Positions 43,925-60,034 of a DNA stretch of 64,000 bases are shown piece after piece. Numbering within the stretch: the stretch's first letter is position 1; the number at the start of each line of letters is the position of its first letter. The notes beneath the pieces were generated by a model, which was not told the origin of the DNA, ran no database searches, and saw only the letters and a list, made by a program, of their open reading frames with translations. Source of the DNA: an uncultured Gemmatimonadales bacterium. GTDB taxonomy: Bacteria; Gemmatimonadota; Gemmatimonadetes; Gemmatimonadales; Gemmatimonadaceae. The DNA lies in the NCBI GenBank assembly GCA_963793305.1, contig CAWBZV010000003.1, positions 1,088,001 to 1,152,000 of the forward strand, read 5' to 3'. Made by a program: the position numbers and the translations under genes.

Positions 43925-45541
43925 ATGGCTTATCGCGTGCTGCTCACCGACAACATCGACCCTGATGGCGTGGCCGTACTGACGGCCGAGCCCGAGCTCT
44001 CGGTCGACACCGTTCCGACGCTCTCACGCGAGGATCTGATCGCGCGCATCGGGGTGTACGATGCGTTGGTCGCGCGGAGTGCGACGCGAGTGTCCCGGGA
44101 GGTGCTGCGCGCGGGGTCACGGCTCGCGGTCGTGGGCCGTGCAGGCGCGGGGGTCGACAACATCGCGGTCGACGCGGCGACCGAGATGGGCATTGCGGTC
44201 ATCAATGCTCCAGCCGGCAACACGGTCGCCGTGGCCGAGCTGTTCTTCGGGTCCGTATTGAGCCTGTTGCGCCACATCCCACAGGCCGACCGCTCGATCC
44301 GCGAGGGCCGCTGGGAGAAAACCCGATTCTTGGGACGCGAGTTGCGGGGGCGCACGCTCGGTATCATTGGCCTGGGTCGCATCGGCGGCGAGATCGCGAC
44401 GCGCGCGCACGCATTCGGCATGACGGTGGTCGCCTACGACCCGTACGTGGGCGACGCGCGATTCCATGCGCTACGCGTTCGTCGCGCGACGGTGCTCGAC
44501 GACATGCTGGCCGAGTCGTCGGTCCTCTCCGTGCACACGCCGCTGGTCGAGAATGAAGGGCTCCTCGGCGAGCGTGAGCTATCGCGCTTGCCGGTGGGCG
44601 CGATCGTCGCGAACCTCGCGCGTGGCGGCATTATTGACGAGAGCGCGCTGGCCGCGGCGCTCGTCGGCGATCATCTGGCCGGGGCGGTCCTCGACGTGTT
44701 CGGAACGGAGCCGCTGCCGGCCGATCATCCGCTGCGCGCGGCGCCGAACGTCGTGCTCACGCCGCACATCGGTGCGTCGACCATCGAAGCGCAGCGCTCC
44801 GTTGCCGTCGACGTGTGCCGTGCGGTGCGCGATGCATTGTTGCACGGTGAGCTCTCGCGTTCGATCAACGCCGCGCTGGTCGAGGGTGTCAACGCCGCCG
44901 ACGTCCGCCCGGCGCTCCTGCTCACTCGCCAACTCGCCGCCGTCGCACAGGCACTGCTCGCGAGCCGTGAGGCGCGCGCGATCGACCGTGTCGAGGTGAC
45001 GCCGGGCGAGTCGCTGGCGGGTGCTCGCGACGCATTGCTCGCCGCGGCCGCGCACGGTGTGCTCGCTCCGGTGCTCTCGCACGAGCGGCTGAACCTGATC
45101 AACGCCCGCGCCCTCGCTGTCGCTCGCGGCATCGCGCTCTCGGCCACCGAACGCGTGCCGGCCGAAAACGGCGCGGCGGCGTATTCGCTCAGCGTCCGCG
45201 TCTCGAGTGGCGCCGAGGAGATCACGGTCACTGGCTCGGCGCATCCCGCGGCCGCACCGCGGATCACGCGCATCGGTGCGTTCCGCGTCGACGTGTATCC
45301 TCGCGGCACGCTCCTCATTTTGTCCAACCGCGACGTGCCCGGCGTCATCGGTCACGTCGGTACGGTGCTCGGCGCGGCCCACGCGAACATCGCCGAGTAT
45401 CACCAGGCGCGCTTGGCCCAAGGCGGCGCGGCGCTGGCGGCGATCACCGTCGACGGTCCGGTGGGCGACGAGGTCCGCTCGGCGTTGCTCGCGTTGCCCG
45501 AGGTTCACGCGGTCACCGTCGTCGAGCTGCCGGCCGAGTAG
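43925..45541 (+). CDS. serA: D-3-phosphoglycerate dehydrogenase
   Basis: GRAGAGVDNI, GLGRIG, TPHIGAST, C-terminal ACT domain (NRDVPGVIG). Confidence 0.95.
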   Translation: MAYRVLLTDNIDPDGVAVLTAEPELSVDTVPTLSREDLIARIGVYDALVARSATRVSREVLRAGSRLAVVGRAGAGVDNIAVDAATEMGIAVINAPAGNTVAVAELFFGSVLSLLRHIPQADRSIREGRWEKTRFLGRELRGRTLGIIGLGRIGGEIATRAHAFGMTVVAYDPYVGDARFHALRVRRATVLDDMLAESSVLSVHTPLVENEGLLGERELSRLPVGAIVANLARGGIIDESALAAALVGDHLAGAVLDVFGTEPLPADHPLRAAPNVVLTPHIGASTIEAQRSVAVDVCRAVRDALLHGELSRSINAALVEGVNAADVRPALLLTRQLAAVAQALLASREARAIDRVEVTPGESLAGARDALLAAAAHGVLAPVLSHERLNLINARALAVARGIALSATERVPAENGAAAYSLSVRVSSGAEEITVTGSAHPAAAPRITRIGAFRVDVYPRGTLLILSNRDVPGVIGHVGTVLGAAHANIAEYHQARLAQGGAALAAITVDGPVGDEVRSALLALPEVHAVTVVELPAE

Positions 45542-46179
45542 TGCCGTTCGCGTCGGTCATTCTCGACGTCGATTCGACGCTGACGAGTGTGGAAGGGATT
45601 GCCTGGCTGGGGGCCCGTCGGGGTGCGGCCGTCATGGCGGCAGTCGACGCGATGACGGCTGATGCGATGACGGGTGCCTTACCACTAGATGCCGTGTACG
45701 CGAAACGCCTATCGCTCGTCCGCCCATCGCGTACCGATCTCGCCGCCCTCGCCGAGGCCTACGCGGCGGGTCTCATGCCTGGCGCTCGTGACGCGATTGG
45801 CACGCTCCGCGAAGCGGGCGTGCACTTATCGCTCGTCAGCGGCGGTCTCCGCGAAGCCATCTTGCCCTTCGCGGCCGGTTTGGGGTTCACCACCAAGGAT
45901 GTCCACGCGGTGGAGCTCCAATTCACGCCGGATGGCGCCTACGCCGGATTCGACGCCGCCACTCCGCTCGCCTGTGCCGGCGGCAAGCCCCGCGTCGCGC
46001 GCACCCTCGGCCTGCGCGGCCCGGTGCTCGCGGTTGGCGATGGCAGCACCGACGCCGAGCTCAAACCGTGCGTCGACGCTTTCGCCGCATTCACGGGCGT
46101 CGCGCGCCGGGAATCTGTCGTCGCCGTCGCCGATTACGTCATCACTCAATTCGCCGAGCTGCCTGCTCTCGTCCTATGA
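45541..46179 (+). CDS. serB: Phosphoserine phosphatase (HAD family)
   Basis: DVDST, VSGG, GDGSTD; coupled to serA. Confidence 0.85.
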   Translation: MPFASVILDVDSTLTSVEGIAWLGARRGAAVMAAVDAMTADAMTGALPLDAVYAKRLSLVRPSRTDLAALAEAYAAGLMPGARDAIGTLREAGVHLSLVSGGLREAILPFAAGLGFTTKDVHAVELQFTPDGAYAGFDAATPLACAGGKPRVARTLGLRGPVLAVGDGSTDAELKPCVDAFAAFTGVARRESVVAVADYVITQFAELPALVL

Positions 46180-47249
46180 CTTTCGGCACCTTCTTCGTCC
46201 CCGGTCCCACCGAAGTCCGCCCCGAGATCCTCCAGGCGATGACCCAGCCGATGATCTCCCACCGCGGCTCGGCGTTTCGCTCACTATTCGAGCGCTGTCA
46301 GACTGGCCTCCGCACTGTCTTCTGCACCAACCGCCCAGTCTTCATCGCGACGTGCTCGGCCACGGGCCTGATGGAAGCCGCGATCCGCAACGCGCCTCCC
46401 GGCAGCGTGCTCGCCTGCGTCAACGGCGCCTTCTCCGATCGCTTCTCGCTGATCGCCGAGAAGTGCGGCCGCGTATCGGAACGCTACGAAGTCCCGTGGG
46501 GTGAGGTCCACGACTCGGCCACAGTCGCCGCCCGCGTATCCGCCGGCCACCACACTGTCGTTGCCGTCGTCCACTCCGAGACATCCACAGGCGCCCTCAA
46601 CGACGTGCGCGCAATCTCCGACGCCGCCCACCGCGCGGGCGCTGTCTGCGTGATCGACAGCGTCAGCGGCATCCGCGGCGCCGAGCTGCGGTTCGACGAC
46701 TGGGGCCTCGACTTCGTCTTCACGGGCTCCCAAAAGGCACTCGCGCTCCCTCCGGGCCTCGCCTTCGGCGTCGCCACCGAGCGCTTCCTCTCCTCCGGCG
46801 ACCGCTCCGCGCGTGGCGCGTACTTCGACCTCGCCGAGTTCGCGTCGGGAGCAGCGAAGGGCGAAGCTCCCAATACGCCCGCGATCTCTCTTTACTACGC
46901 CCTCGCGGCGCAACTCGAGTGCATCCTGGAAGAAGGCATCGAGAACGCGTGGAAACGCCACGCCGCGATGGCGGCGATGACATACGCGTGGGCCGAGGAT
47001 CTCACGCGCGACGGGATTGCGGTGAGCCCGTTCGCGAAGGCCGGCCATCGCTCGCCGACGGTGACCGCGATCTCATTGCCGAAGGGCATCACCGGCGAAG
47101 CCGTCGTGAAGGCCGTGTCTGCGGCCGGCATCACACTCGGCGCGGGATACGGGAAGCTCAAAGACACGACGATCCGGATCGGCCACATGGGCGACCATAC
47201 ACCGGAGACCGTCGAGCGCTGTCTCGAGAAGCTGGCCGGCGCGTTGTAA
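46176..47249 (+). CDS. Class V PLP aminotransferase, probable phosphoserine aminotransferase role
   Basis: PGPT, HSETSTG, GSQKALALPPG, RIGHMG; third gene of the ser operon. Confidence 0.88.
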   Translation: MTFGTFFVPGPTEVRPEILQAMTQPMISHRGSAFRSLFERCQTGLRTVFCTNRPVFIATCSATGLMEAAIRNAPPGSVLACVNGAFSDRFSLIAEKCGRVSERYEVPWGEVHDSATVAARVSAGHHTVVAVVHSETSTGALNDVRAISDAAHRAGAVCVIDSVSGIRGAELRFDDWGLDFVFTGSQKALALPPGLAFGVATERFLSSGDRSARGAYFDLAEFASGAAKGEAPNTPAISLYYALAAQLECILEEGIENAWKRHAAMAAMTYAWAEDLTRDGIAVSPFAKAGHRSPTVTAISLPKGITGEAVVKAVSAAGITLGAGYGKLKDTTIRIGHMGDHTPETVERCLEKLAGAL

Positions 47250-47312: not shown

Positions 47313-49148
47313 ATGTCACGGTTTGCTATCGCGCTGGTACTGACGCTGTTGGGCGCCGGCGGGCTCGCGGCTCAGACGTGTTCGGAACGCCAGACCAAGC
47401 GATCGGACTCGCTGCCGATGCTGAACCGGCCAACCGTATTTATCAGCTCGGATAGCGGCAAAGTCAGCGGTAGTTTGCCGTTCGACGAGCGATTCAACCT
47501 TTCGGGACCTGCGGATTCGTCCCTCGTCGCGGTCGCAGTGCGGTTGATCCGATTGACGCCGGACATCCCCAACGTCGAGGCAGACCCTTGCCGCGACAGT
47601 CTCTTCAACGACCCTCGAGCGACCCGTTGGAATCGCACGGATAAACGGGTCAAAGTTTTCACGGTACTGGTCCGCCCGATCGTGCCAAGCTCGCCGTATG
47701 TGATCCGCGTCGCGACGTTGACGCGTTTGCCGGATTCCGTTATTCGCTCCGCAGCGAGCGCCATAGCCGACAGTATCCGGACGGCGCAGGACTCTGTTGA
47801 GGCGCGAACGGTTCGTGTGGTGGCCAACCTCGTGCCGGCTGACACCCTCTATTCGACCGCCGAACGAGCGGCCTTTGGAGTGGACAGCGGCGTATCCTCG
47901 CGACACTCGACGCCTCACAAGTACGTGGTCACTCAAGCACTATTGCGCGTCGCGAGTTTCCAGTCGGTGCGCACAGATCGGCACAATGACTCGGTGACTC
48001 GCCATGCCGACACGGTAACCAGCCACGGTGACTCGGCTCGGCGCGTTGACTCGGCCCGGCGCCAAACTGATTACCGGACGTTCCAACAGCAGTACCAACA
48101 AGCCCGGCGTGCCCGGGCCGGGGCCATTGAGCAATTGGACGCGGACACTGGTTGGATCCGTATTCGCCTCGATGCGCTGACGCGCCAGATCACACCGTTC
48201 TCATTTCTGTTGTTGCCGAACGATTTTGACGGTGGTCACTATCGGTCCGCAATCATCTTCACGCAAGCACTCCCCGCGCGATTGACTCGAGAGAAGCAGC
48301 GCATCATCGATGGCCAGACGCTCGTGGAGAACGCGGACGACACCGTCGAGTCGCTTGGCCATGCCGCGATTCTGCATAGTGCGGCCATCACGCCGATCCA
48401 GGGCCGGCTGGCGATGCTCGATGCCGATGTTCGTGACCAATACGAGTTGTTCACGATCGCGAGGCGTGATCCGCTGGTCCGAGAGCGGTTGCGTGGGGAT
48501 ACCGCACGGCTCGACTCAGCGATGACGATCGACACATCGCTCATTCGACTCGTGTCCCAAGAACGCGAGACCTACGGCGCGCTGGCCAAATCCCTCGACG
48601 CGCTCGACTCGGCGGCCCTGCAGTACGCTCGCACGGTCGTGCCGCGACTCAAGCCAGATTCGCTGGCGTTCTTCGCCACGACGGATCACCAGTTCGATGA
48701 TCGAGCGTCGCTCTACATCAGCGCTGACATTGGCGTGCTCGTCGCCACCCCCATCTTCCAGCGCTTCTCGGGCACGGTCGTCACGCCGTACGTCGGGGTG
48801 AATATTTACCCGTTGGCGGTGAACAAGAAGGCGCCGTTGAGCGATTGCGAGCAGATGCCGCAGTGCCGGTTCAAGCGCTTCTCGGCCACGATCGGAGTCA
48901 CGACCAGTAGCATCGGTCGGACCGGTGTTCGCACGGATCTCTTTGGCCAACACAGTCTGTATGTCGGCGTCGGCTACCGCTGGAACAGTTACTTGCGGGC
49001 CACCGCCGGCTCGCTGATGTATCAGACCTATTCGACCGACGGTGCGCATACGCTCCGCTTCAACATGACACCGGCGCTCTCGCTGTCGTTCGATTGGGAT
49101 GTTAAGAGCACATTGGGCGGCATAGCTTCACTCCTGGGCGGTGGTTGA
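47313..49148 (+). CDS. Secreted hypothetical protein with helical middle and C-terminal amphipathic beta-strands
   Basis: Signal peptide; alternating-residue strands at the C-terminus. Confidence 0.7.
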   Translation: MSRFAIALVLTLLGAGGLAAQTCSERQTKRSDSLPMLNRPTVFISSDSGKVSGSLPFDERFNLSGPADSSLVAVAVRLIRLTPDIPNVEADPCRDSLFNDPRATRWNRTDKRVKVFTVLVRPIVPSSPYVIRVATLTRLPDSVIRSAASAIADSIRTAQDSVEARTVRVVANLVPADTLYSTAERAAFGVDSGVSSRHSTPHKYVVTQALLRVASFQSVRTDRHNDSVTRHADTVTSHGDSARRVDSARRQTDYRTFQQQYQQARRARAGAIEQLDADTGWIRIRLDALTRQITPFSFLLLPNDFDGGHYRSAIIFTQALPARLTREKQRIIDGQTLVENADDTVESLGHAAILHSAAITPIQGRLAMLDADVRDQYELFTIARRDPLVRERLRGDTARLDSAMTIDTSLIRLVSQERETYGALAKSLDALDSAALQYARTVVPRLKPDSLAFFATTDHQFDDRASLYISADIGVLVATPIFQRFSGTVVTPYVGVNIYPLAVNKKAPLSDCEQMPQCRFKRFSATIGVTTSSIGRTGVRTDLFGQHSLYVGVGYRWNSYLRATAGSLMYQTYSTDGAHTLRFNMTPALSLSFDWDVKSTLGGIASLLGGG

Positions 49149-49492
49149 TGTCGGCGGCCATGAACAACATCACCTTGCTCGACACGCAGCCAGTCCCCGC
49201 GATCCCCATTCCGGGCCCCGTGACGCTCTCGTTCACCGCTACCGCGTGGACGCCGACGCAACGCGTCAACGTGTCATACTCGATCATGCAGACCGCGAAC
49301 GTCACGCTTGCTGACAGCACAGGCCTGGATAGCGTCGCGATTCCGGATCGCGCGACTCCCGTCACACTCCAGACCCGATTCCGGCTCAAGCAGGGGACGA
49401 CCGCGCCGCAAAGCTTTGAAGTCCATGCCGAGGTGTTCGACAACAAGGTGCGGCAGTTCGAGGTCGTCTGGATCATCGGGGTGAAACCGTGA
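49145..49492 (+). CDS. Small beta-rich hypothetical protein
   Basis: Overlaps both neighbouring genes by about 4 nt. Confidence 0.6.
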   Translation: MMSAAMNNITLLDTQPVPAIPIPGPVTLSFTATAWTPTQRVNVSYSIMQTANVTLADSTGLDSVAIPDRATPVTLQTRFRLKQGTTAPQSFEVHAEVFDNKVRQFEVVWIIGVKP

Positions 49493-50139
49493 AGCGCTTC
49501 GTGCTCGCCTTAGGCGTGCTCCTCGCATGTCACGACTCGGTCGATCCAGGAGCGACCGGCCTGACCTCTCTGGGCGCGGCGCCCGACACGGTGCTCGCCA
49601 ATGCCGTCAGCGAGACGAAACTGAGCGCGACGGTCGACCCGCATTCGATAGCGCCCTGGTCCGTCACGTTCACCTCGACGGCCGGTGTGTTCGCGGAAAC
49701 CGGGACACAAGCGGCCACGCAAGGTGCGGATCCCACGGGCCTGGCGACTGTCTACTTGCGCGCACCACGCGATTCGGCGACAGCCACGGTCACCGCGACG
49801 GTTGACACCGTGGTGCGGAGCATGACCGTGTATTTCGCGCTCGCGTCCGTCGACTCGATCACACTCGTGCCAGCCGCGCTCCATGTCCCGGACTCGGTTC
49901 AGGTCACGGCCTACCTGAGAAGCAACGTCGGCTTCCCGAGTCCGGGCGTGCTTCTCAAGTTCACAGCGACCGGGTCGGCGGGCGACTCAACCGGTCAGTT
50001 CACGCCCGTTTTGCCGAGCGATACGACGAATGTTGTGAACGTCCAATACTACCGGGATTCAACCTACGCGGGGACTGTGACAATTGTCGCGACAGCGCCC
50101 AACGGCGTCGTCGGACGTGCTGTCATCACCGTGCCATAG
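49489..50139 (+). CDS. Lipoprotein with two Ig-like (invasin/Big-type) domains
   Basis: Lipobox LLAC; VLANAVSETKLSATV, DPTGLATVYL. Confidence 0.7.
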   Translation: MKRFVLALGVLLACHDSVDPGATGLTSLGAAPDTVLANAVSETKLSATVDPHSIAPWSVTFTSTAGVFAETGTQAATQGADPTGLATVYLRAPRDSATATVTATVDTVVRSMTVYFALASVDSITLVPAALHVPDSVQVTAYLRSNVGFPSPGVLLKFTATGSAGDSTGQFTPVLPSDTTNVVNVQYYRDSTYAGTVTIVATAPNGVVGRAVITVP

Positions 50140-50216
50140 GCGATTTCGCCTAGGCGGTCTGGCGCAGTGCCGCCGGTGATTGTGGACGGCGTGTTCAACA
50201 ATCGCCAAGTTGGCGG

Positions 50217-53200
50217 ATGTCCCTTCGCCATCCTGCCGCACTGATGCTTGTCGGGTGCCTGGTCGCGGCAGCGACCAGCTGTAGGCGAGAGGCTAACGAC
50301 GCCGACAGCCTCGTTCGAGCGCTGGCGAGCCTGCACATGCCACGGTCCACGGTCGCCCGATTATCAATCGCCAGCCGCTACATCCGATGTGACTCCTTGG
50401 AGGCGGGTGAGTGTCGGCACCCGCCAGCGTTTGACGGAGCACTCCTCGCTCGCGTCGGCGCGATCGCCGCGCGCGCAGCCACACGCCTTCACGACCACTA
50501 TGACCCTGACGCGGTCCATGCGGCCGCACTCATCGACCTGCTGTGGGCTGACCCCGCGGGAAATTCTCTGCGTCGGGCCATCTCATCTCTTCGGTTGGTG
50601 GCGCAAGTGTCGACGCACCCCGTTCCATTGCTGACCGATCTCGCGGCCGCGCTGCTTCTACGCGACGCGCACACCGGATCAGCGAGCGATGTGGTCGAGG
50701 CAGTCGATGTAGCCCAGCGCGCGGTTGAGCTGGATTCCCTGAATGCCGCAGCGAGGTTCGATCTGGCGCTTGCGCTCGATCGACTGGGCCTCGCCGCACA
50801 AGCTGGTCGTGCATGGAGAGATTACGTGCGTATCGATATTTCGTCACCGTGGGCCGACGAAGCGCGCGCTGGTGTGAGGCGCTGCGACAGTATCGCCGCT
50901 CCAGCCCATGACACGGCCAGCTCGCCGCAGGTCGCTCGTGTCACGGGCTGGGACTCCGTGCTTGGCGCGTGGGGAACCGCGGTGTCACAGAACAGCACCG
51001 CGCATGCCAAGGCTTCGTTGGGGCGGGCAAGTCAGCTCGCGAAGCTCGTGCAACGGTCCGGAGACGCATCGCTCGCGGAGGCAGTCCGCGGCATGCGAGC
51101 CAGTAGCGGCCGGCGCCGGCTCGCGCTGGCGCGAGGTTACCAAGCATACGCGCAGGGCCGACGAGCATTCTTGGCAGGGGATATGGATGGGGCGCGTCGA
51201 TGGCTGATGGTCGCTGCTCGCGCATCGTCAGGATCCGTGCTCGCTGCATGGGCATCGGTATATCTCGCCGCCACCGCATTGCAACTCGGTGACACCGCTT
51301 CGGCGTTCCGGCTTCTCGGCCCGGTCGTGCGGAGTGTTGACGCAGCACGGTATCCGGCGCTCGCGGGGCAAATGCACTGGACCCGGGCCGTCGTGCTCAT
51401 CCGCATTGGTCAGTACGAACACGGCCTGGTTGAGTCGCAGGTGGCCGAGCGGTCCTTCGCACGCGCCGGCGAACGGGAGAATCAGGGCGCCGTCGCATTT
51501 CTCCAGAGTACCGCGTATATCGCGCTCGGGAACCTCACGGCCGCGGCCCAGTCGCTCCGACGGACGTTACTCGTCCTCAGGTCCGATCGCCGCTCTGTCT
51601 TCCTCCACAATGTCCTCTTGGTATGGGCCGAGATGGAGTCTAACGGGCCCGTACGTGCGGCGAAGCGAATCGTGGACGAGGACATTGCGGTTGCCGACCT
51701 GTCCGGACTGCCGGTCGCGACCGTGGGAGCGCGGACCCTTCGCGCCCGCCTCCGCGCCCTGGAGAGAGATACGGCCGGTGCGGTGGCCGACTTGGATTCC
51801 GCGCGCACGCTCATCGCGTTTGTGCCGGCCGGACCTCTGTACCGCTGGCTAGCAGCGAACCTCGCCATTGCGCAGGCATCTCTCCGAACGAAACGTCGAG
51901 CCAGGGATGCGTCGCTCGACTCGGCGGTGAGCTTTTTCCAGGAGATCCACAGCGCCGCGCTCGAGCCGCAAGCGCTGGCTATCAGGGCCGAAGCGCGACT
52001 GATGCTCGGCGATACGGCTGACGGTGCCGCGGATCTCCGGCAGGCGCTGACCTTGCTCGCTGCGCAAGGAGAAGGGGTCGCCAGTGCGCCGCTCCGAGTG
52101 ACCTTTCTCGACGCCGCGCGACGGACCATCGATCGGCTCGTGCTACTCCGAATGCAACAGCCAGCAGAAGCGCTGGCGATACTGGAGCGCGGGCGGGCAG
52201 CGGTAGCGTCTGCCGTGCCGGACCCACAACGCGCCGCTGACGAGCCGATCCGATCACCGTCCGGTGTGGTCGTACTCGACTACTCGGTGATCGGCGACAC
52301 CGTGTTGAGCTGGACGGTGCGCGACACGCTCGTGCGTCTGCACCGTTGGACCGTCCGAAGCGGCGCGCTGTTCATGACCATTGCGAGGGTGGTGGCCGCC
52401 ATGGAGTCGCGCTCAAACGGAACGCAGGTCGAGCGCGACCTCTCCGATCTCTATCGGCAACTCGTTGCGCCGGTCGAGGCGGACTTGGGGCGTCGCGACA
52501 CATCGCTCATGATTGTCGCGGACGGAGAGTTGGCGGCAGTCCCGTTCGCGGCGTTACGCGATGGGAACGGGCATTATCTGGTCGAGTCACGCCTGCTGCG
52601 TTTCTCGAACAGCTTGCGTGACGTCACCGCGCCGCGCTCGACATCTCGCTCCCAGCCGTCAGCAGTCGTGCTCATTGGCGATCCGGCGTTTGCGGCGAAC
52701 CTCCACCCCGAGCTCGAGCGTCTTTCGGGCGCGCGTGCCGAAGTCGACTCCATCCAGGCGATCTATCCGACGGCGCGCGTGCTTCGCGATGCCGCGGCGG
52801 ATCGCCGAGCAGTGGAAGCCGCTCTGCGAGGCTCGACCGTGGTGCACTTCGCCGGCCATGCGCGCATCGACGATGATGAGCCGGAGCGATCCACGCTCGT
52901 TCTGGCGGGGACGACGCCAACCGCGGATCTCGATGCGGCTAGCATCGCGACCCAGCGCTTTTCGCGTGCCCCTCTCATCGTGCTATCCGCTTGCGAAACC
53001 GCTGTTCCACGCGCCGGCCGGTCCGGAGGGCTGGCGAGCCTCACCGGGGCTTTCTTGCGGGCCGGCGCAATCGGCGTCGTCGGGAGTTTGTGGCGCGTGG
53101 ACGACCACGACACGCAACCGCTCATGACTGCGCTGCACCGCGCCTATTCGCAATCTCGCGATGGCGCTGTCGCGCTTCGCGCGGCCCAATTGCAATTGGT

Positions 53201-53267
53201 GCACGGATCAGCGCCGGCGCTCCGAGCACCGATGGCCTGGGCCGCATTTCGCTACACCGGGTCCTGA
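50217..53267 (+). CDS. TPR-CHAT (caspase-like) protease with N-terminal export signal
   Basis: TPR-like helices; IVADGELAAVPF, L.GARAEV, VHFAGHA, LSACET, VVGSLWRVDD, WAAF. Confidence 0.92.
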   Translation: MSLRHPAALMLVGCLVAAATSCRREANDADSLVRALASLHMPRSTVARLSIASRYIRCDSLEAGECRHPPAFDGALLARVGAIAARAATRLHDHYDPDAVHAAALIDLLWADPAGNSLRRAISSLRLVAQVSTHPVPLLTDLAAALLLRDAHTGSASDVVEAVDVAQRAVELDSLNAAARFDLALALDRLGLAAQAGRAWRDYVRIDISSPWADEARAGVRRCDSIAAPAHDTASSPQVARVTGWDSVLGAWGTAVSQNSTAHAKASLGRASQLAKLVQRSGDASLAEAVRGMRASSGRRRLALARGYQAYAQGRRAFLAGDMDGARRWLMVAARASSGSVLAAWASVYLAATALQLGDTASAFRLLGPVVRSVDAARYPALAGQMHWTRAVVLIRIGQYEHGLVESQVAERSFARAGERENQGAVAFLQSTAYIALGNLTAAAQSLRRTLLVLRSDRRSVFLHNVLLVWAEMESNGPVRAAKRIVDEDIAVADLSGLPVATVGARTLRARLRALERDTAGAVADLDSARTLIAFVPAGPLYRWLAANLAIAQASLRTKRRARDASLDSAVSFFQEIHSAALEPQALAIRAEARLMLGDTADGAADLRQALTLLAAQGEGVASAPLRVTFLDAARRTIDRLVLLRMQQPAEALAILERGRAAVASAVPDPQRAADEPIRSPSGVVVLDYSVIGDTVLSWTVRDTLVRLHRWTVRSGALFMTIARVVAAMESRSNGTQVERDLSDLYRQLVAPVEADLGRRDTSLMIVADGELAAVPFAALRDGNGHYLVESRLLRFSNSLRDVTAPRSTSRSQPSAVVLIGDPAFAANLHPELERLSGARAEVDSIQAIYPTARVLRDAAADRRAVEAALRGSTVVHFAGHARIDDDEPERSTLVLAGTTPTADLDAASIATQRFSRAPLIVLSACETAVPRAGRSGGLASLTGAFLRAGAIGVVGSLWRVDDHDTQPLMTALHRAYSQSRDGAVALRAAQLQLVHGSAPALRAPMAWAAFRYTGS

Positions 53268-53301
53268 CGTTCCTCATCCATCCCTGAAGGGAGAGTATCC
53301 C

Positions 53302-54342
53302 ATGAGTACGCCATACACGCTGACAGTCACGGTCGCCGGGCTATGCCTGGCGGCTGCCGATGAGCAGGCGACATCGAACGACAACTTGCTGCACGTGCTG
53401 ATGATGCGATACGACCCGCAAAACCAGAATAACATGCAGCACTTCGCGCGCCTGTTGTTCGATGCCGACTATTTAACCGGCGTGGATTCGGGCACGCAGA
53501 CGCTCACGTGCGTCGATCTGTACAACGGAGCGCTCGACTTGGATGTCGGCCCGACAGCCATTGACTTTCAGGCGTCGCCTCCGACCGGTATCGCCAACCT
53601 CAGCACCCTGGCGAGCGTCGCCACCTTAGATCCTACGTACGTGACCGGCAATTCGAATCACATCGCGAACGCGCGACTCACGTTACGGAAAGGTGCATTT
53701 GGCGTGCAAGGTAAGACCGCGAAGTTCGACACGACCGCTGGGCCACAGGACCTCAGCCACTACATGGTCTGGACAATGACCGGTGGTATGACCAAGGACC
53801 AAAACGCGAATAAACAGGACTGCTTGACACTGACATTCCAACAGATGGAGTCGGACAAGAACGATCCGCCAGCGCCGGCCGCGATCCAGCTGTGCCCGAA
53901 GGGAGGCCAGATCAACCTGTACTTCATGAATGCCATGCCCATGGAAATTCCGTCGACCGACGTCCCTGCCGATCCGCAGTCCACCTGGAATCCAGGGGAT
54001 GAGGCGATGCATTTCGATGGCTACTTCAGTGCCTTCCCCGGTACCCCGATGGCGATCATCCAGAAGAGCACACCGAAGCTCCAAAACAAAACGGATCTCC
54101 CCGGCGACAGTCCGCTCGCGGGCTGGAAAGGCGGTTGCGTGTTCTTGACGCGGTCCTCGGGCGCCAAGCTATTCGACGTGCCTTCACCGTTCATCGGTGA
54201 CAACGAGGAGACGATTCTTACGCCGGTCTGCATTCACGCGATTGTGGATGTCGGCGTCACGAACCCAAAGCCGCCAAGCCCGTCGTTACTTGAATCTGCA
54301 GGCCATTCCAGTCACCAGGGGCACGGAAGTCCCGCCATGTGA
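53302..54342 (+). CDS. Hypothetical beta-rich protein downstream of CHAT
   Basis: GAAGGGAG RBS then ATG 53302; 346 aa. Confidence 0.75.
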   Translation: MSTPYTLTVTVAGLCLAAADEQATSNDNLLHVLMMRYDPQNQNNMQHFARLLFDADYLTGVDSGTQTLTCVDLYNGALDLDVGPTAIDFQASPPTGIANLSTLASVATLDPTYVTGNSNHIANARLTLRKGAFGVQGKTAKFDTTAGPQDLSHYMVWTMTGGMTKDQNANKQDCLTLTFQQMESDKNDPPAPAAIQLCPKGGQINLYFMNAMPMEIPSTDVPADPQSTWNPGDEAMHFDGYFSAFPGTPMAIIQKSTPKLQNKTDLPGDSPLAGWKGGCVFLTRSSGAKLFDVPSPFIGDNEETILTPVCIHAIVDVGVTNPKPPSPSLLESAGHSSHQGHGSPAM

Positions 54343-55099
54343 TGCCGATGGAAGCCGGTAGCCGGGACATGAGCGCCCGGCTGCCGGCGGACGTGAAGAA
54401 CGCGACGTCGTGGTGCGCGGCCGCAATCCGAGCTGCCTCCATCCAGGCGCCGAGATCGACGGCCTCGCGCCCCGCGATCACGGCGGCCAGGGGCGCGCCG
54501 AGCGCGAGGAGGGAATCGCGCCCATGAGCGTCACGGGTCGTGTCCACCATCTGCCGAAAAATTTGAGCGACCGAGGCTGATCCGGGCACCGCATCGAGCA
54601 AGACTGCGATATCGGCAGCGCTACGCGCCGCGCGTGCATCGCTCGCTCGGATTTCGAGTATGAGGTCCGTGAGATGTGCGCCCAGACGTATCGCCCGAGC
54701 GCTGTCAGTCAGCGGCTCAGCCGTACCCCGTGTCGTAGCCCATGGCGCTCCGTTCCAATCGGATGGAAGCGTCGATTCGCTCGCCAACGACACAGCAAAT
54801 CGCCGGGGGTCTGCGGAGGGCGCCGACGCAGGGTACATGCGAGCGAGCGACACGATGGTGATGATCGCAACGATACTGGCGGCGATGGCCAGACCAGCCC
54901 TGCGCCACCGGAGCGAGCGCGCCGGCAGTGCTTTGGCCCGGGGCCCCTCCCCGTGGATCACGCCCGCCGCATCAACGAACGCCTCGAGCGCCACATCAGA
55001 GGTCCCGAGGCGCGCGAGGATCTCTTCGCGTTGACGAGCATCGAGCCGCCCATCAAGCAGCGCTGCGATCCGTTCCGCGTCATCCAAGGGATCCGTCAT
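54257..55099 (-). CDS. Putative single-pass anti-sigma factor
   Basis: N-terminal ERIAALLDGRLD...ILARL (ZAS-like, lacks HxxxCxxC); one TM helix; follows the ECF sigma. Confidence 0.7.
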   Translation of the reverse strand: MTDPLDDAERIAALLDGRLDARQREEILARLGTSDVALEAFVDAAGVIHGEGPRAKALPARSLRWRRAGLAIAASIVAIITIVSLARMYPASAPSADPRRFAVSLASESTLPSDWNGAPWATTRGTAEPLTDSARAIRLGAHLTDLILEIRASDARAARSAADIAVLLDAVPGSASVAQIFRQMVDTTRDAHGRDSLLALGAPLAAVIAGREAVDLGAWMEAARIAAAHHDVAFFTSAGSRALMSRLPASIGITWRDFRAPGDWNGLQIQVTTGLAALGS

Positions 55100-55154
55100 G
55101 CGATGGGTTCTCCTGGCATATCCACGAAGATTGGATGATCCCGCGCCCAGTCTT

Positions 55155-55922
55155 TCACTGCTCGAGCTCGCTTAACATTGTCTGGACGCGCTCGCGCGAG
55201 ACACCCGACAGCTCGACGCAACGACGTATATCAGCTAACGCGCGCTCGATACGGCGATAGAGCGGCTTCTGCGGCATACCAAGAGCTCGCGAAATCTCGG
55301 CAACCGTCATGCCCTCCCAGAAGCGCATTCGGATGATCGCCCGATCCTCGCTGGACAGGCGGTCGAGCGCAGCCTCTACCGCCTGTTCGGCATGACGCCG
55401 ATCATCGTCCCATGCGGCTAGCTCGCTCGCATCCGCCGCGGGTACCTCGGCAAGCGGCGCTGATCCGACCTCGAGGGGCCGCATCGGATCGCGGAGGGGT
55501 AACTGCGAAAGTATCGCCGCCAGATCCCGATCGGACATCGCGGTATCTCCCCGCGTCCGCAAGACCTCGGCCGCCTGATCGAGCCGGTGCCCATCGCGGT
55601 AGACCAAGGTCTCGAGTTGGACCGCGATCCGGCCACGCCGGCACGCCGCCGCGGAGGGGCGCCAGCGGCCCCAGCGCTGGACGCGGTAGTCGCGGGCCAG
55701 CATCGCTATGACGACCGTGAGGTAGGTGCCGAGCGCGCTCTCGCCTCGGAACTTACCGAGAATCGCATAGTCGTTCTCGACGAGCTTGAGCTTGATCCAC
55801 GAGCCGAAATCGGCGGTGTCGTCTCCAGTCATCCCGTGACGCCGGCAGATCGCGCCCGCGATCCGCTCGATGGCGCCGAGGTGACTCAAGAATAGCGCTT
55901 CGAGCTGTTGCCGCGCCGCCAT
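55155..55922 (-). CDS. ECF-type sigma-70 factor
   Basis: Region 2 (KFRGESALGTYLTVV) and region 4 (LSSEDRAIIRMRFWEGMTVAEISRALG). Confidence 0.88.
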   Translation of the reverse strand: MAARQQLEALFLSHLGAIERIAGAICRRHGMTGDDTADFGSWIKLKLVENDYAILGKFRGESALGTYLTVVIAMLARDYRVQRWGRWRPSAAACRRGRIAVQLETLVYRDGHRLDQAAEVLRTRGDTAMSDRDLAAILSQLPLRDPMRPLEVGSAPLAEVPAADASELAAWDDDRRHAEQAVEAALDRLSSEDRAIIRMRFWEGMTVAEISRALGMPQKPLYRRIERALADIRRCVELSGVSRERVQTMLSELEQ

Positions 55923-56083
55923 GAGGCAAAAGCTACAATCGGGTGGACTTCGCCGCCGATAGGTCGCGATCATGGCAGCGATCATAGCCGGACCTGCGCA
56001 GGCTGTCCTTAAGCGATCGCTAAATCATTCTCAAATGTTCTCGCTATTCGCGAAACCGCGACCGAGCGTCCGTCTAATGAGCT

Positions 56084-56659
56084 GTGACCCTACCTCTCGT
56101 CATTTCAGTCCTGCAAGCGCTGGATCTCGCCGCCATGGTGGCCGATGGTGCCGGTCGGGAGGTGCGAGAGACCGCGCGACTCGGCCGGCTACTCGCTGAA
56201 GACGCGGACAGCTCCGATGTGCGCGCTCGCCTTTTGCAACTCGTTCGCAAACGGTTAACACGGAATGGCGTTGGCGCACCGGTCACGGTTGAAACGCGAC
56301 GAGGGGTGTACACGCTGTTGGCGGTTCCGTGGCCCCAGCCGGATGGTGTGGTCACCCTCGGCATCGGCCTCGCGACCGTGAGCGGGAATCTCGCGGTCGA
56401 CCCCAGTGTCAGGCAGCGGTTCGGCCTCACCCCCCGCGAAAGCGACGTCGCGTCACGCCTCGCAGCCGGCGCGTCGAGCCGGGAGGTGGCTGAGAGTCTC
56501 GGCATGAGCGTGCATACCGCGCGGAGACACACGGAGCGCGTCTTGCAGAAATGCAATGTGCGGCGGAGGGCCGGGGTTGCCGCGGCGCTCTACGCGGCGT
56601 GGTTGCCGGAGCCAGTGGCTACGACGATACCTCGCTCGTCGCCAGCGATGCGTCCGTGA
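56084..56659 (+). CDS. LuxR-type HTH regulator
   Basis: GLTPRESDVA...GASSREVAESLGMSVHTARRH...K. Confidence 0.8.
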   Translation: MTLPLVISVLQALDLAAMVADGAGREVRETARLGRLLAEDADSSDVRARLLQLVRKRLTRNGVGAPVTVETRRGVYTLLAVPWPQPDGVVTLGIGLATVSGNLAVDPSVRQRFGLTPRESDVASRLAAGASSREVAESLGMSVHTARRHTERVLQKCNVRRRAGVAAALYAAWLPEPVATTIPRSSPAMRP

Positions 56660-57070: not shown

Positions 57071-58143
57071 CTAGGGGACAGACAGTCCCAAACTTTTCAG
57101 CAGTGAAAGAGCGAGCTTGCTCAGGTCGACCTCGTCCATGTTGGCGAGAAGTACGACACCCGTCTCGCGATCGAGATCGAGGACGACATAAGTACTGGTT
57201 CCCTGCTGGCCACCGGAGTGGCCAACGCAATGGACGCACGTGCTGTCACCGATCCCCCAGCCAAGGCCGTACCCGGTCACCGAGTCGCGCGTGGTGCGTT
57301 GCGGGGTCCACATCAGCGTGCGAGTCGAGCGCCGCATCAGCTTATCGTGATAGAGCGCCGACTCGAACTTGGCCAGATCGGTGGCCGACGACAGCCAGCC
57401 GCCGCCCGGCACCTTGTAGCTCGCGTCGAGGAAATCCGCGTTCTGAACCTGCTCGGTCGAGTCTCTATGGTAGAAGCGCGTCCGATGGCGAATGATCGCA
57501 AACCGGTCGTCGGCCCGCGTCTCGGTCATTCCCGCTGGCACAAACACATTTTCCCGCACGGCGTCCACGTATGAGGTGCCCGCCGCGCCGGCGATGGCGC
57601 ATCCGACGAGCGTGTAGCCCATCGTCGAGTAGTTGAATCTGGTGCCCGGCTGCGCGACCAACGTGTCGGACGCGAAGAACGCGATGCCACCCGCGATCCC
57701 ATCGGTGAAGTGCTTCGTGTTCCCGCCCTCGAGGTCATCCGCGGCCTGGACTTATAGTGCCGAATCCCGCCAAGGTGGCCGAGCAGCTCGCGCGTCGTGA
57801 TGGGCCACGGCTTCTCGGGGAAGCCCGGGCAGTATCGCTGGATCGGCGCGTCGAGATCCAATTTGCCGCGCTCCCACAGGACCATCGCCTCGGTGGCCGT
57901 AATTGGTTTGGAAACCGATCCGAGACGGAAGAGCGTATGCGCCGTCACCGGAACGGCATTCTCGAGGTCCGCCATCCCATAGCCCTTGGCCCACACCGGA
58001 TTGCCGCGGACCACGGCCGCCACCGCGATACCCGGTGCGTGAGTCGTCGCCATGAACTTCGCGATCGCGCTGTCGACGCGCGCCGGCTGGGCCGACGCGA
58101 CTCCCGAGAGCGCGAGGAACGCCAGTACGGGGAGTTGTCGCAT
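57071..58143 (-). CDS. Secreted serine hydrolase (beta-lactamase family), frameshift near 57747
   Basis: FRLGSVSK (SxxK), LLGHLGG; second frame PGTRFNYST, GHSGG. Confidence 0.85.
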
Positions 58144-58172
58144 GACCGACAATCTACAGTCTAATATTAGAG

Positions 58173-60034
58173 GTGCGCTCAGTAGCGCTCATGCTCTGTG
58201 TGTGTGCCGCGACGGCCGCCGGTCAAGCGGGCGGCACGCTCGTGACCACGATCGTCGAGCGGGAGACGCACGCTCCGCTTGGCTTTAGCACGGTCACGGT
58301 GACGGCGGTCGGGCGAAGCGACTCGGTCGCTCGATTCACGGACGACGCCGGCCAGACGCTGTTTGCCCCACTGGCACCCGGCCGATATCGGATTCGGGCG
58401 CGCGAGCTCGGATTCGCGCCCGCCGATACGGTCGTCGACTTCGCCGACAATGTCCCGCACTGGGGTGTCGTGCTCACGCTGCACGCGATACCGCAGCAGT
58501 TGGAGACGGTCGACGTGCGTGAGCAGGGCGTCTGCCGGCAACCGGGCATACCGGACGAGATCGCGTCGCAGATTCACGAGAACGCCCAATCGCGCGCGTC
58601 TGCTCGCCGCCGCGTATCCGTACTATTACCAGCGCGAGGAGCACATCGCGAACGCGTACGACACGGCGACGTACGACAGTCGAAGCTACGTCACGTACCG
58701 CGTCGGTCACTGGTGCATGCGACGCGCGATCCCCATGGCGCGCGAGTGGTGGTCGTCGTCGCTGCCGCACCTTCAGGATCTCGCCGATAGCGGATTTCAG
58801 CGCGTCCACTGTTTTGGTATGCGGGCGCGATAGCTCCGGCGTCCGAATCGATGTCGAGCCGTTCGTCACGCTCGGCGACGCCGACGTCGCGGCGCGGTTC
58901 TATCTCGATCCGGAGCACTTCGTCGTCCGTCGCGCGACGTTTCGGGTGACCCACACCGAGCGCATCGACCCGACGCTCGAGTCGCAGGTCGTCGAGACGC
59001 GATATCGCGAGTTGGCTCCGCTGGTCGCGGTGCCCGATTCGATCGTCTCGACGACCAAAATGCGGGCGCCATGGCAGGGAGGGACACGCACGATCGTCGA
59101 GCAGGATCGGCTGATCACCGTCTGGGACGTGACCGGCGTGATGGCGGATAGCTCGGGCGGTAAGGCGGTGGCTGCCTTGCTCGACTCCGCCAGCACCGAC
59201 GCTCCGCCAGGGCAGTCGACGCGCAACGTCCACGGCCGGTTGATCGCCGCCGACAGCGCGCCGCTCGTCGGCGCGCATGTCGAGATCCTGGGGCTGCACA
59301 TGGCGGCGGTCGCGGGCGACAGCGGGCAGTTCGACCTCCATGACGTCCCAATCAGCGAGCAGACGTTGTTCATTCGCCGGATCGGGTACCGGCCGACGAC
59401 GGCCACGCTGCCTGCCACGACGCGCCGCGTCACGATCCGGATTCCGGCGTCGAGCGTCGTGACGTTGGATCCCGTGGTGGTGCAGGCGCAGCGTACGGCG
59501 GCCGCGTATCACCAGATCGGGTTCGATTTACGCCGGAAGACGGAGCGCGGGTTCTTCCTCGACGCCGATCAGATCAAGCGTCTGGGCGCATCCAAGTTGT
59601 TCGAGCTGGCCGCGCGCGCGCCCTGGATACGATACGTCCACCCCGGTGGGGTGCAGGCGGCGTCCCCTGCACCGTCACTGCGCGCTTTGACTCCCCAGCA
59701 GGGGCTGACGCGGGCCGGCGCCGGTCACGATGAAGACGCGCTGGGGCCGCACATCGCGTCCGATTCGTTGCGGGTCGAAGGCGATGTGTCGTGCCTGGGT
59801 ACGGGCTGCGCTCCGTGCCTCAGCTACTTTGCCGACGGGCAGATGATCCGCGACGGCGAATCCATTCATCCGTCGCTCACATTCCGCGACATCGAGGCGC
59901 AGTACCCGCCGGACCGAATCGCGGCGCTTGAGGTGTATGAGCCGTACGCGGTCCCATCGGCGATCAGCGCGCAGGGCGGCGCCGGATGCGCGGTGATCAT
60001 GATCTGGACGAAGCGATATCTGGGGATCGAGTAG
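58173..60034 (+). CDS. Secreted protein with two carboxypeptidase-regulatory-like domains and a plug-like C-terminus; frameshifts near 58586 and 58820
   Basis: FTDDAG...PGRYRIRARELGF; RRIGYRP; GF..RR...GFF; IAALEVY; CAVIMIWTK across three frames. Confidence 0.7.

Follow-up and report, generated by a model that had tools for sequence, protein, structure and literature searches.

The best-described system of the kind considered here is the DdvS/DdvA pair of Myxococcus xanthus, in which a sigma factor of the extracytoplasmic function (ECF) type is paired with a membrane-spanning anti-sigma factor that has a periplasmic tetratricopeptide repeat (TPR)-CHAT part (PDB 8rot and 8rw5; PMC11506125). 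In the model proposed in the available part of that report, the CHAT domain, once activated by a signal, severs the linker that joins the membrane helix to the periplasmic part, and a further cut by RseP within the membrane sets the sigma factor free; in the same part, DdvA-like anti-sigma factors are reported only from Myxococcota and from one Comamonas (PMC11506125). Here, we describe a locus in a 64-kb stretch of DNA (hereafter the window; G000:C3:1088001-1152000) from G000, the 5.72-Mb metagenome-assembled genome of a soil Gemmatimonadaceae bacterium, where a sigma factor, a membrane anti-sigma factor, a TPR-CHAT protease with a predicted export signal, and a fourth protein that we call g346 are encoded by separate, adjacent genes. 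These genes form a real conserved four-gene unit, and we give about an even chance to the reading that this cassette is a split envelope switch of the DdvS/DdvA type, with the anti-sigma factor as the likely substrate of the protease, cut in trans.

Regulation by successive cuts is familiar from the sigma-E system of Escherichia coli, in which RseA receives a periplasmic site-1 cut from DegS and then a site-2 cut from the M50 protease RseP, and the sigma factor is released. A TPR-CHAT protease is likewise known from type III-E clustered regularly interspaced short palindromic repeat (CRISPR) systems, where Csx29 is cytoplasmic, is activated by RNA via Cas7-11, and has as its substrate Csx30, which is linked to a sigma factor. 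To our knowledge, DdvA is the only anti-sigma factor with a TPR-CHAT domain that has been studied, and no paper on a split sigma/anti-sigma/TPR-CHAT cassette was found in the literature searched. Among classified sigma factors, group ECF54 is described, in the part of its source that was available, as 100% actinobacterial and without an anti-sigma factor, with carboxypeptidase-regulatory-like, subtilase and CHAT-TPR neighbours (PMC7826278, Casas-Pastor et al. 2021); the main text of that classification mentions neither CHAT nor Gemmatimonadetes.

The four cassette genes are arranged as follows (window positions).

50217-53267, + strand: TPR-CHAT protease, 1016 residues; match to PF12770 (CHAT), E 2.1e-57.
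53302-54342, + strand: fourth protein, g346, 346 residues; no known family.
54257-55099, - strand: anti-sigma factor, 280 residues; single hydrophobic helix at residues 68-86 in a transmembrane scan.
55155-55922, - strand: sigma factor of the sigma-70 family (ECF-type), 255 residues; TIGR02937 match of 58.5 bits (cut-off 42.9).

The sigma and CHAT genes lie about 1.9 kb apart. The C-terminal tail of g346 is disordered, and the last 86 bp of its gene coincide with the 3' end of the anti-sigma gene.

With the sigma factor as anchor, a scan of one genome per species yielded 64 loci, 17 of which matched in region 4 only and were dropped, leaving 47 loci whose gene content was established by local iterative searches of six-frame open reading frames (ORFs). 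Loci with 6 kb or more of sequence on the downstream side of the sigma gene (32/47) are called well flanked, and a TPR-CHAT gene is called large when it encodes 900 residues or more. The anti-sigma gene stands directly downstream of the sigma gene in 41/47 loci (30/32 well-flanked ones), a CHAT gene is present in 30/47 (27/32), and a g346 relative in 19/47 (16/32). A large TPR-CHAT gene lies no more than 5 kb from the sigma gene in 26 of the 32 well-flanked loci, the 27th CHAT-bearing locus among them (L060) encoding a CHAT protein of 343 residues at a distance of 6.9 kb. There are three CHAT matches in the 5.72 Mb of G000, which by our arithmetic gives a chance of about 1% of meeting one in any 20-kb stretch, and the observed adjacency of sigma, anti-sigma and CHAT genes (26/32) is therefore far beyond chance. 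A preliminary description of the window, made from its letters and a list of ORFs, had joined five co-oriented genes to the sigma and anti-sigma genes as one system; checked against other loci, this conservation extends to the sigma, anti-sigma, TPR-CHAT and g346 genes, and not to three further genes upstream.

While adjacency is kept, gene orientation differs among the loci. The sigma, anti-sigma and CHAT genes are co-directional and abutting in six loci, the CHAT and g346 genes converge on the sigma/anti-sigma pair in the window and in about a dozen others, and the g346 gene is divergent from the sigma gene in four. The pairwise distances among sigma, anti-sigma and CHAT proteins correlate across 30 loci (Spearman 0.73-0.79; the value for the anti-sigma/CHAT pair was reached by 0 of 999 permutations), which is consistent with genes that are inherited together; a correlation of this kind also arises from shared descent alone. 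In terms of distribution, among 151 genomes sampled from the phylum at least 6 carry the sigma family and at least 2 the g346 family, and a full-length relative of the protease is present in at least 3 of the 6 genomes of the genus, counting G000; these counts are lower bounds, as only part of the first-look candidates was scored.

A natural fusion protein, P0273, argues that the anti-sigma factor and the protease work together, because its single chain combines an anti-sigma head with a part that is related to the protease over the full length. This protein of 1120 residues from Thermoanaerobaculia contains zf-HC2, TPR and CHAT regions (its source name is CHAT domain-containing protein) and was found among longer proteins by its match to the anti-sigma profile (E 6.2e-11). 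In P0273, residues 12-58 align with the head of the window anti-sigma factor (32% identity over 47 residues), and residues 108-1113 with residues 30-1012 of the window protease (29% identity, E 1e-56). We note that P0273, which is uncharacterised, resembles the cassette in having a full-length protease relative and a head of the same anti-sigma family, and differs from it in being one polypeptide and in having no counterpart of the approximately 190-residue periplasmic domain of the anti-sigma factor.

The protease itself begins with a predicted lipoprotein-type signal, with the cysteine at position 14 or 22. Among its CHAT relatives, a lipobox-like signal was detected by regular expression in 13/30, with one further weaker case, and the remainder mostly have other hydrophobic N-termini, as judged by eye. 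The export signal of the window protein and the hydrophobic N-terminal signals of its relatives agree with the trans-envelope module that the preliminary description had proposed. The PF12770 match reaches 195.2 bits (cut-off 24), and H877, H881 and C926 are invariant in 22/22 sequences, with the catalytic histidine being one of the two candidates; this invariance argues for catalysis on some substrate. The AlphaFold model (predicted local distance difference test, pLDDT, 86; predicted template modelling score, pTM, 0.85) places an all-helical scaffold/TPR solenoid in residues ~74-674 and the CHAT domain in residues 684-1016. In a profile search against PDB sequences, the best natural match was DdvA (8rot_B, E 4e-15), with Csx29 chains at about 1e-4, and Foldseek likewise ranked DdvA first (8rot_A, E 9.7e-19), with template modelling (TM) scores of 0.58/0.65 over 1044 columns, compared to TM scores of 0.25-0.41 for separases and Csx29. 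VIA-align places residues 29-1015 of the model on residues 95-991 of the DdvA chain (Z 24.8, 850 residues) at 19% identity, the highest obtained. As observations in their own right, the sister genome G001 has a Peptidase_S8 subtilase gene (L011 14308-15543) immediately upstream of its CHAT gene, and another locus has, just after its CHAT gene, an ORF of 165 residues (L037 14684-15178) with a match to Ntox46 (bacterial toxin 46) of E 2.3e-4 and 21.6 bits, below the cut-off of 25.

The predicted layout of the anti-sigma factor is a head in the cytoplasm (residues ~1-60), one helix across the membrane (68-86) and ~190 residues that make up a periplasmic domain, and a single hydrophobic helix after a basic stretch is found in 39 of the 40 relatives scanned. 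The periplasmic domain looks helical and has W120, R124, R138 and G140 as invariant or near-invariant positions (alignment A5); it is unrelated to the protease (hhalign of A5 against A3, probability 0.1%), and a comparison with solved structures returned nothing below E 0.05. A match to Pfam zf-HC2 is seen in 6/28 members of the family, the strongest at E 1.6e-7, and acidobacterial members carry the zinc motif HxxxCxxC. The family thus shows the traits of a class I anti-sigma factor, namely the +1 position behind the sigma gene (41/47 loci), a single membrane helix and a conserved head with zf-HC2 in some relatives, while binding to the sigma factor is predicted.

For the sigma factor, the ORF extends to 55985, and the start that gives 255 residues was chosen as consistent with the family (alignment A1). 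Residues 27-256 match positions 2-164 of TIGR02937, so that 230 residues correspond to 163 model positions, and we therefore assign to this protein an insert of ~70 residues between regions 2 and 4, which holds the invariant motif GRWRPSAAA. Pfam recognizes region 4 only in the window protein, with PF07638 below its cut-off, and in comparison with solved sigma factors, relatedness was likewise detected in region 4 only. An ECF (group 4) sigma factor is defined by regions 2 and 4 alone, with ~160-200 residues. The family comprises 1020 proteins at E<=1e-5, source-named Gemmatimonadaceae and Longimicrobiaceae. A Gibbs sampler run on 45 sigma-upstream regions returned the housekeeping-like pattern TTG-N19-GTACnTT, which in the window lies at 55923-55960 and is found ahead of most sigma genes of the family (upstream regions of L016-L062). 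In the window, in G001 and in genome G004 the pattern ends ~8-13 nt before the ATG, which suggests that the sigma mRNA is leaderless in these genomes.

The fourth protein, g346, is all-beta (predicted model, pTM 0.81), starts with a structural beta-hairpin, and shares with its family the motif MAFxLxITFxGLC. Alignment A2 has invariant columns at L7, G13, H47, G131, W157, P258 and C310, and nearly invariant ones at C15, D54, F238 and P271. A full profile search found 2566 representative clusters at E<=1e-3; a word-index search with the family alignment gave 3 proteins only. Neither g346, nor 18 representatives, nor 3 relatives from the loci matched Pfam in the copy searched, the Pfam annotation is empty for P0121-P0123, and no NCBIfam or PADLOC family matched g346. 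DUF8256 was unmatched by g346, by its relatives and by 11 further CHAT-adjacent ORFs, in a copy of Pfam from which that model is possibly absent. Foldseek found nothing in PDB for the g346 model at E<=1e-3, the ESM Atlas gave nothing usable, and VIA-align reached no Z>=2 with any of 48,161 representatives or of the top 994 chains from Foldseek, a result that is possibly technical, as unmatched models usually reach Z 7-8. Five ORFs of ~260-285 residues adjoin CHAT genes in loci without g346, with an hhalign probability of 11% to the g346 family. Some loci carry two tandem or nearby copies of g346 (L019 8774-9637 and 9725-10657; L044 11783-12511 and 16619-17443).

No signal peptide was found in the window g346 protein. 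The preliminary description had offered this adjacent 346-residue effector as a substrate of the protease; as the absence of an export signal places it in a compartment other than that of the exported protease, we consider this unlikely. It is possibly a cytoplasmic, metal-binding partner, with a putative metal site, or an output.

In the scheme that we infer for the cassette, from the signal and the contact of the protease with the anti-sigma factor as its substrate to the role of g346 and the regulon, a signal would activate the exported TPR-CHAT protease in the periplasm. The protease would then sever the outer domain from the rest of the anti-sigma factor; the W120-x3-R124 stretch, ~35 residues outside the membrane, is a candidate site. 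Cleavage after Arg is a trait of clan CD proteases such as separase and gingipain R. An M50 membrane protease of the RseP type would finish the cut, and the sigma factor would be released; M50 proteases are encoded at three places in G000 (four matched stretches, best E 1.5e-67). The preliminary description had placed an anti-sigma factor under the control of a TPR-CHAT protease in a trans-envelope module, an arrangement for which DdvA provides a published precedent (available part of PMC11506125).

Several observations weigh against this scheme, and we set them out together. First, VIA-align scores are higher for Csx29 (Z 32.6) and for separases (Z ~28) than for DdvA (Z 24.8). These alignments cover the C-terminal two thirds of the model only, from ~290 on for Csx29 and from ~190 on for separases, and, as far as the predicted model allows, the protease has a general TPR-CHAT fold whose whole architecture, including the N-terminal scaffold, is common only to DdvA. 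Second, a CHAT gene is lacking in 5/32 well-flanked sigma loci, where the neighbours are unrelated, and W120 and R124 are kept in four well-flanked loci that have an anti-sigma gene with no CHAT gene nearby, so that this motif is not tied to CHAT adjacency. Third, the window anti-sigma factor has no Pfam match and no HxxxCxxC. Fourth, a sigma factor of the family is present as an orphan on plasmid 1 of Gemmatirosa kalamazoonensis (L082, NZ_CP007129.1 464748-465512), with no anti-sigma, CHAT or g346 gene within the 9 kb fetched on each side; this is the one plasmid record that matched the sigma factor. For the record, Gemmatirosa kalamazoonensis is a cultured species, and its sigma factor, which is 52% identical, lies on a 1.1-Mb plasmid.

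Transcription also weighs on this side. The CHAT operon of the window converges on the sigma operon, and the two are therefore not co-transcribed, and no motif shared by the promoters of the sigma and CHAT operons was found. In a scan over all loci, about 27 have TTG-N19-GTACnTT upstream of sigma and only 2 have it upstream of a CHAT gene, with the scan matrix having been trained on the very sites found upstream of sigma. The sampler found no motif in 22 CHAT-upstream regions, with an information content of 13.6 compared to 12.2 in shuffled controls, in what was a weak search.

A fuller version of the scheme can be put forward only tentatively, namely that of a two-compartment switch, widespread in soil Gemmatimonadota and Acidobacteriota, in which the exported protease would cut the anti-sigma factor at W-x3-R and cytoplasmic g346 would act as a second checkpoint, for example by docking on the ~70-residue insert of the sigma factor or by sensing a metal.

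Of the explanations that compete with cleavage of the anti-sigma factor by the protease, the one that survives best, though we judge it rather unlikely, takes the TPR-CHAT protein as a sensor or guard, which would either bind the periplasmic domain of the anti-sigma factor, as RseB does on RseA, or cleave itself from its lipid anchor at the conserved linker that follows the lipobox, with another protease making the first cut of the anti-sigma factor. The cut proposed for DdvA is indeed autoproteolytic and falls in the linker between helix and TPR-CHAT part, in a protein whose active site has been called incomplete (available part of PMC11506125). The stretch of P0273 that is homologous to the N-terminus of the mature protease directly follows the membrane segment, so that the split protease keeps this "linker" beside its own anchor, and the persistence of the W/R motif in the anti-sigma factor without a CHAT gene nearby points the same way. 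However, the histidine and cysteine positions of the protease are invariant in 22/22 sequences, and the cassette has no further conserved protease gene, the subtilase gene beside CHAT being found in G001 only.

It is unlikely, in our estimate, that the CHAT and g346 genes are outputs of the sigma regulon that act on other targets, rather than part of its input. Their placement in an operon of their own, convergent on the sigma/anti-sigma pair in the window and in about a dozen other loci, would suit such a role, and the conserved neighbours of ECF sigma genes are often their targets, with the authors of the ECF54 group leaving open "regulation or response" in the available part of their paper (PMC7826278). 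Against this, the CHAT gene abuts the sigma/anti-sigma genes co-directionally in six loci, both the P0273 fusion and the DdvA precedent put TPR-CHAT on the input side, and the search upstream of CHAT genes, weak as it was, found no sigma-type promoter motif above the shuffled control.

We regard as very improbable an anti-phage or conflict module, in which the envelope part would sense phage and set off a defence response, or in which g346 would be a toxic effector. Such a role would be in keeping with the regulon of DdvS/DdvA, which protects Myxococcus from a phage (available part of PMC11506125), and with the patchy distribution of the sigma factor, g346 and the protease in the genomes of the phylum and genus. 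It would also be in keeping with the comparison of G000 with G004, where identity is 90-95% in the flanks, 74% for the sigma factor, 50% for the anti-sigma factor and 35-40% for the CHAT protein, with the CHAT gene inverted. This gradient means that the sensory genes have been either swapped for a distant allele or diverging much faster than their flanks. Gene by gene, the syntenic locus (L012, L013) has identities of 95% for serA, 90% for serC and 90% for the LuxR gene, ahead of the three values just given. On the other side, PADLOC returned no defence-family match for the eight genes of the block singled out in the preliminary description or for 15 flanking ORFs, save two partial domain-level hits, no CRISPR-like array was found in the window, the neighbours are housekeeping or hydrolase genes, and the sole plasmid record that matches the sigma factor is an orphan copy. 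The same PADLOC result lends no support to the defence and gasdermin idea of the preliminary description. For a gasdermin neighbour in particular, the eight block genes matched PADLOC, which presumably includes gasdermin models, at a weak HTH (helix-turn-helix) or CHAT level only.

The possibility that the adjacency is accidental or the ORFs not genes is practically nil, and is refuted by the neighbourhood census: high-GC DNA does yield many long spurious ORFs, but all four proteins have many relatives with conserved columns, and the neighbourhood stands in 26/32 well-flanked loci compared to ~1% by chance.

The remaining genes of the block and its left flank are the following.

43925-45541, + strand: serA, left flank.
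45541-46179, + strand: HAD (serB-like) gene, left flank.
46068-47249, + strand: class-V aminotransferase gene (serC), left flank, directly upstream of the trio.
47313-49148, + strand: first gene of an upstream trio, 611 residues; signal-like N-terminus; no Pfam or NCBIfam match.
49145-49492, + strand: second gene of the trio, 115 residues; no Pfam or NCBIfam match.
49489-50139, + strand: third gene of the trio, 216 residues; lipobox-like N-terminus; Invasin_D3/Big_1 (Ig-like) below the Pfam cut-off only.
56084-56659, + strand: GerE/LuxR-type HTH gene; PF00196, E 1.1e-9; divergent from the sigma gene.

The ORFs, coordinates and family matches bear out the layout first described, with five co-oriented genes on the + strand, the anti-sigma and sigma genes on the - strand converging on them, and the LuxR-type gene divergent from the sigma gene. 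The block was also rightly placed directly after the ser genes, with serA, the HAD gene and the class-V aminotransferase gene directly upstream. The GC content at third codon positions (GC3) was profiled because of a claim that the block has more A/T-ending codons than its flanks: values of 0.72-0.83 in the block compared to 0.81-0.85 in serA/serC agree with this for the left flank, and the 0.70-0.74 of the right-flank genes does not. As the GC3 of the right flank equals that of the block, the latter is not a distinct compositional island.

The idea that the five co-oriented genes make up one system does not stand for the first three. No relative of their products (611, 115 and 216 residues) turned up among the 47 sigma loci or within the searched stretches of G001 and G004. 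The three genes recur as a unit in G001 on contig C85 (L081 1495-4236), with the G001 cassette on contig C45, and they are missing from contig C144 of G004, where serC abuts the CHAT gene directly. With stop/start overlaps of 4 bases between them, they are a separate, translationally coupled trio outside the cassette, and an uncharacterised exported three-gene cassette in their own right.

Similarly, the GerE/LuxR gene is a local neighbour and no conserved member of the cassette: relatives adjoin the sigma gene only in L016/L013 (one G004 contig), L033 and L057. A GerE match in L059, considered as a further LuxR relative, was set aside, since it belongs to an unrelated PAS/receiver protein with a GerE domain.

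On the other side of the LuxR-type gene, a serine hydrolase gene of the beta-lactamase family PF00144 (57071-58152, - strand) is broken into two overlapping frames, with 57526-58152 covering profile positions 1-122 and 57071-57661 positions 136-312. The split of this gene in the window is a frameshift or assembly error; the same split appears in G004 as two tblastn pieces. Two genes with CarboxypepD_reg domains follow at 58173-58790 and 58814-60034, 2-3 kb from the sigma gene.

Taking the cassette as a whole, we can now compare it with the systems introduced at the outset. In the RseA/DegS/RseP system, as in the scheme proposed for the cassette, a single-pass anti-sigma factor receives a site-1 and then a site-2 cut; the site-1 enzyme of the cassette would, unlike DegS, be a caspase-like cysteine protease with a TPR sensor and not a PDZ serine protease, and only the sigma factor and the M50 protease are homologous between the two. 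ECF54 resembles the cassette in having an ECF-type sigma factor with a conserved CHAT-TPR neighbour, which in both cases is a bioinformatic prediction, and there are parallels in the subtilase beside CHAT in G001 and in the two CarboxypepD_reg genes near the window sigma gene. By its description, ECF54 is set apart from the cassette, in which an anti-sigma gene is nearly always present and which occurs in the phyla Gemmatimonadota and Acidobacteriota.

The likeness to Csx29 is one of fold (TPR-CHAT; VIA-align Z 32.6 over 513 residues, model residues 291-1016; PDB 8eey, 7y9x and others) and of a protease linked to the control of a sigma factor. The Csx29 family model NF041237 reaches only 18.6 bits (cut-off 300), matching protease residues 917-979 alone, and the N-terminal 290 residues of the protease have no Csx29 counterpart. 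The preliminary description had called the block CRISPR-free, and the 64-kb window indeed has no tandem or short-spaced direct repeat arrays; this absence of a repeat array sets it apart from type III-E loci, as does the fact that the neighbours match no Cas family of NCBIfam or PADLOC, the search for cas genes being confined to these neighbours within the genome. The analogy with Csx29 and Csx30 that the preliminary description had drawn does not hold, as Csx29 is cytoplasmic and works with Cas7-11, the window protease is exported, and nothing supports a Csx30-like substrate.

DdvS/DdvA remains the closest known system, and on our reading the cassette works likewise. Both pair a sigma factor with a membrane anti-sigma factor and a periplasmic scaffold/TPR/CHAT part of ~900-990 residues with a His/Cys pair, and G000 encodes an RseP-type protease. 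The scaffold, TPR and CHAT architecture, predicted to be periplasmic, is present (Foldseek, VIA-align, export signals), and a CHAT gene lies near the sigma gene in 27/32 well-flanked loci. In DdvA, the zinc-binding cytoplasmic head, the helix and the TPR-CHAT part form one chain, whereas here they are distributed over separate genes on opposite strands, and for want of this single-chain architecture the cassette is not a strict member of the DdvA type. Its TPR-CHAT protein is, by prediction, a separate exported lipoprotein and not the C-terminus of the anti-sigma factor, which has its own, unrelated periplasmic domain of ~190 residues and, in the window copy, no zinc motif. Unlike DdvS, the sigma factor carries an insert of ~70 residues, and the cassette adds a fourth conserved protein. 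Furthermore, unlike in DdvS/DdvA, no cyclic oligonucleotide-based anti-phage signalling system (CBASS) or CRISPR genes lie nearby, as judged from the eight block genes and 15 flanking ORFs and from repeats in the window; the regulon could lie elsewhere.

These differences also define what the cassette can offer. Cleavage of DdvA is hard to test, as a single chain, itself part of a dimer, serves as both enzyme and substrate; in the cassette they would be the products of two genes, and co-expression could therefore reveal both the cutting and its site. The cassette, whose carriers are uncultured soil bacteria, could thereby reveal if the site-1 cut in a sigma switch is made by a bacterial caspase-like protease. 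Compared to DdvS/DdvA, it brings in the large g346 family (2566 representative clusters, with no Pfam model in the copy searched and no structural neighbour so far), and it extends the known range of the DdvA-type design beyond Myxococcota.

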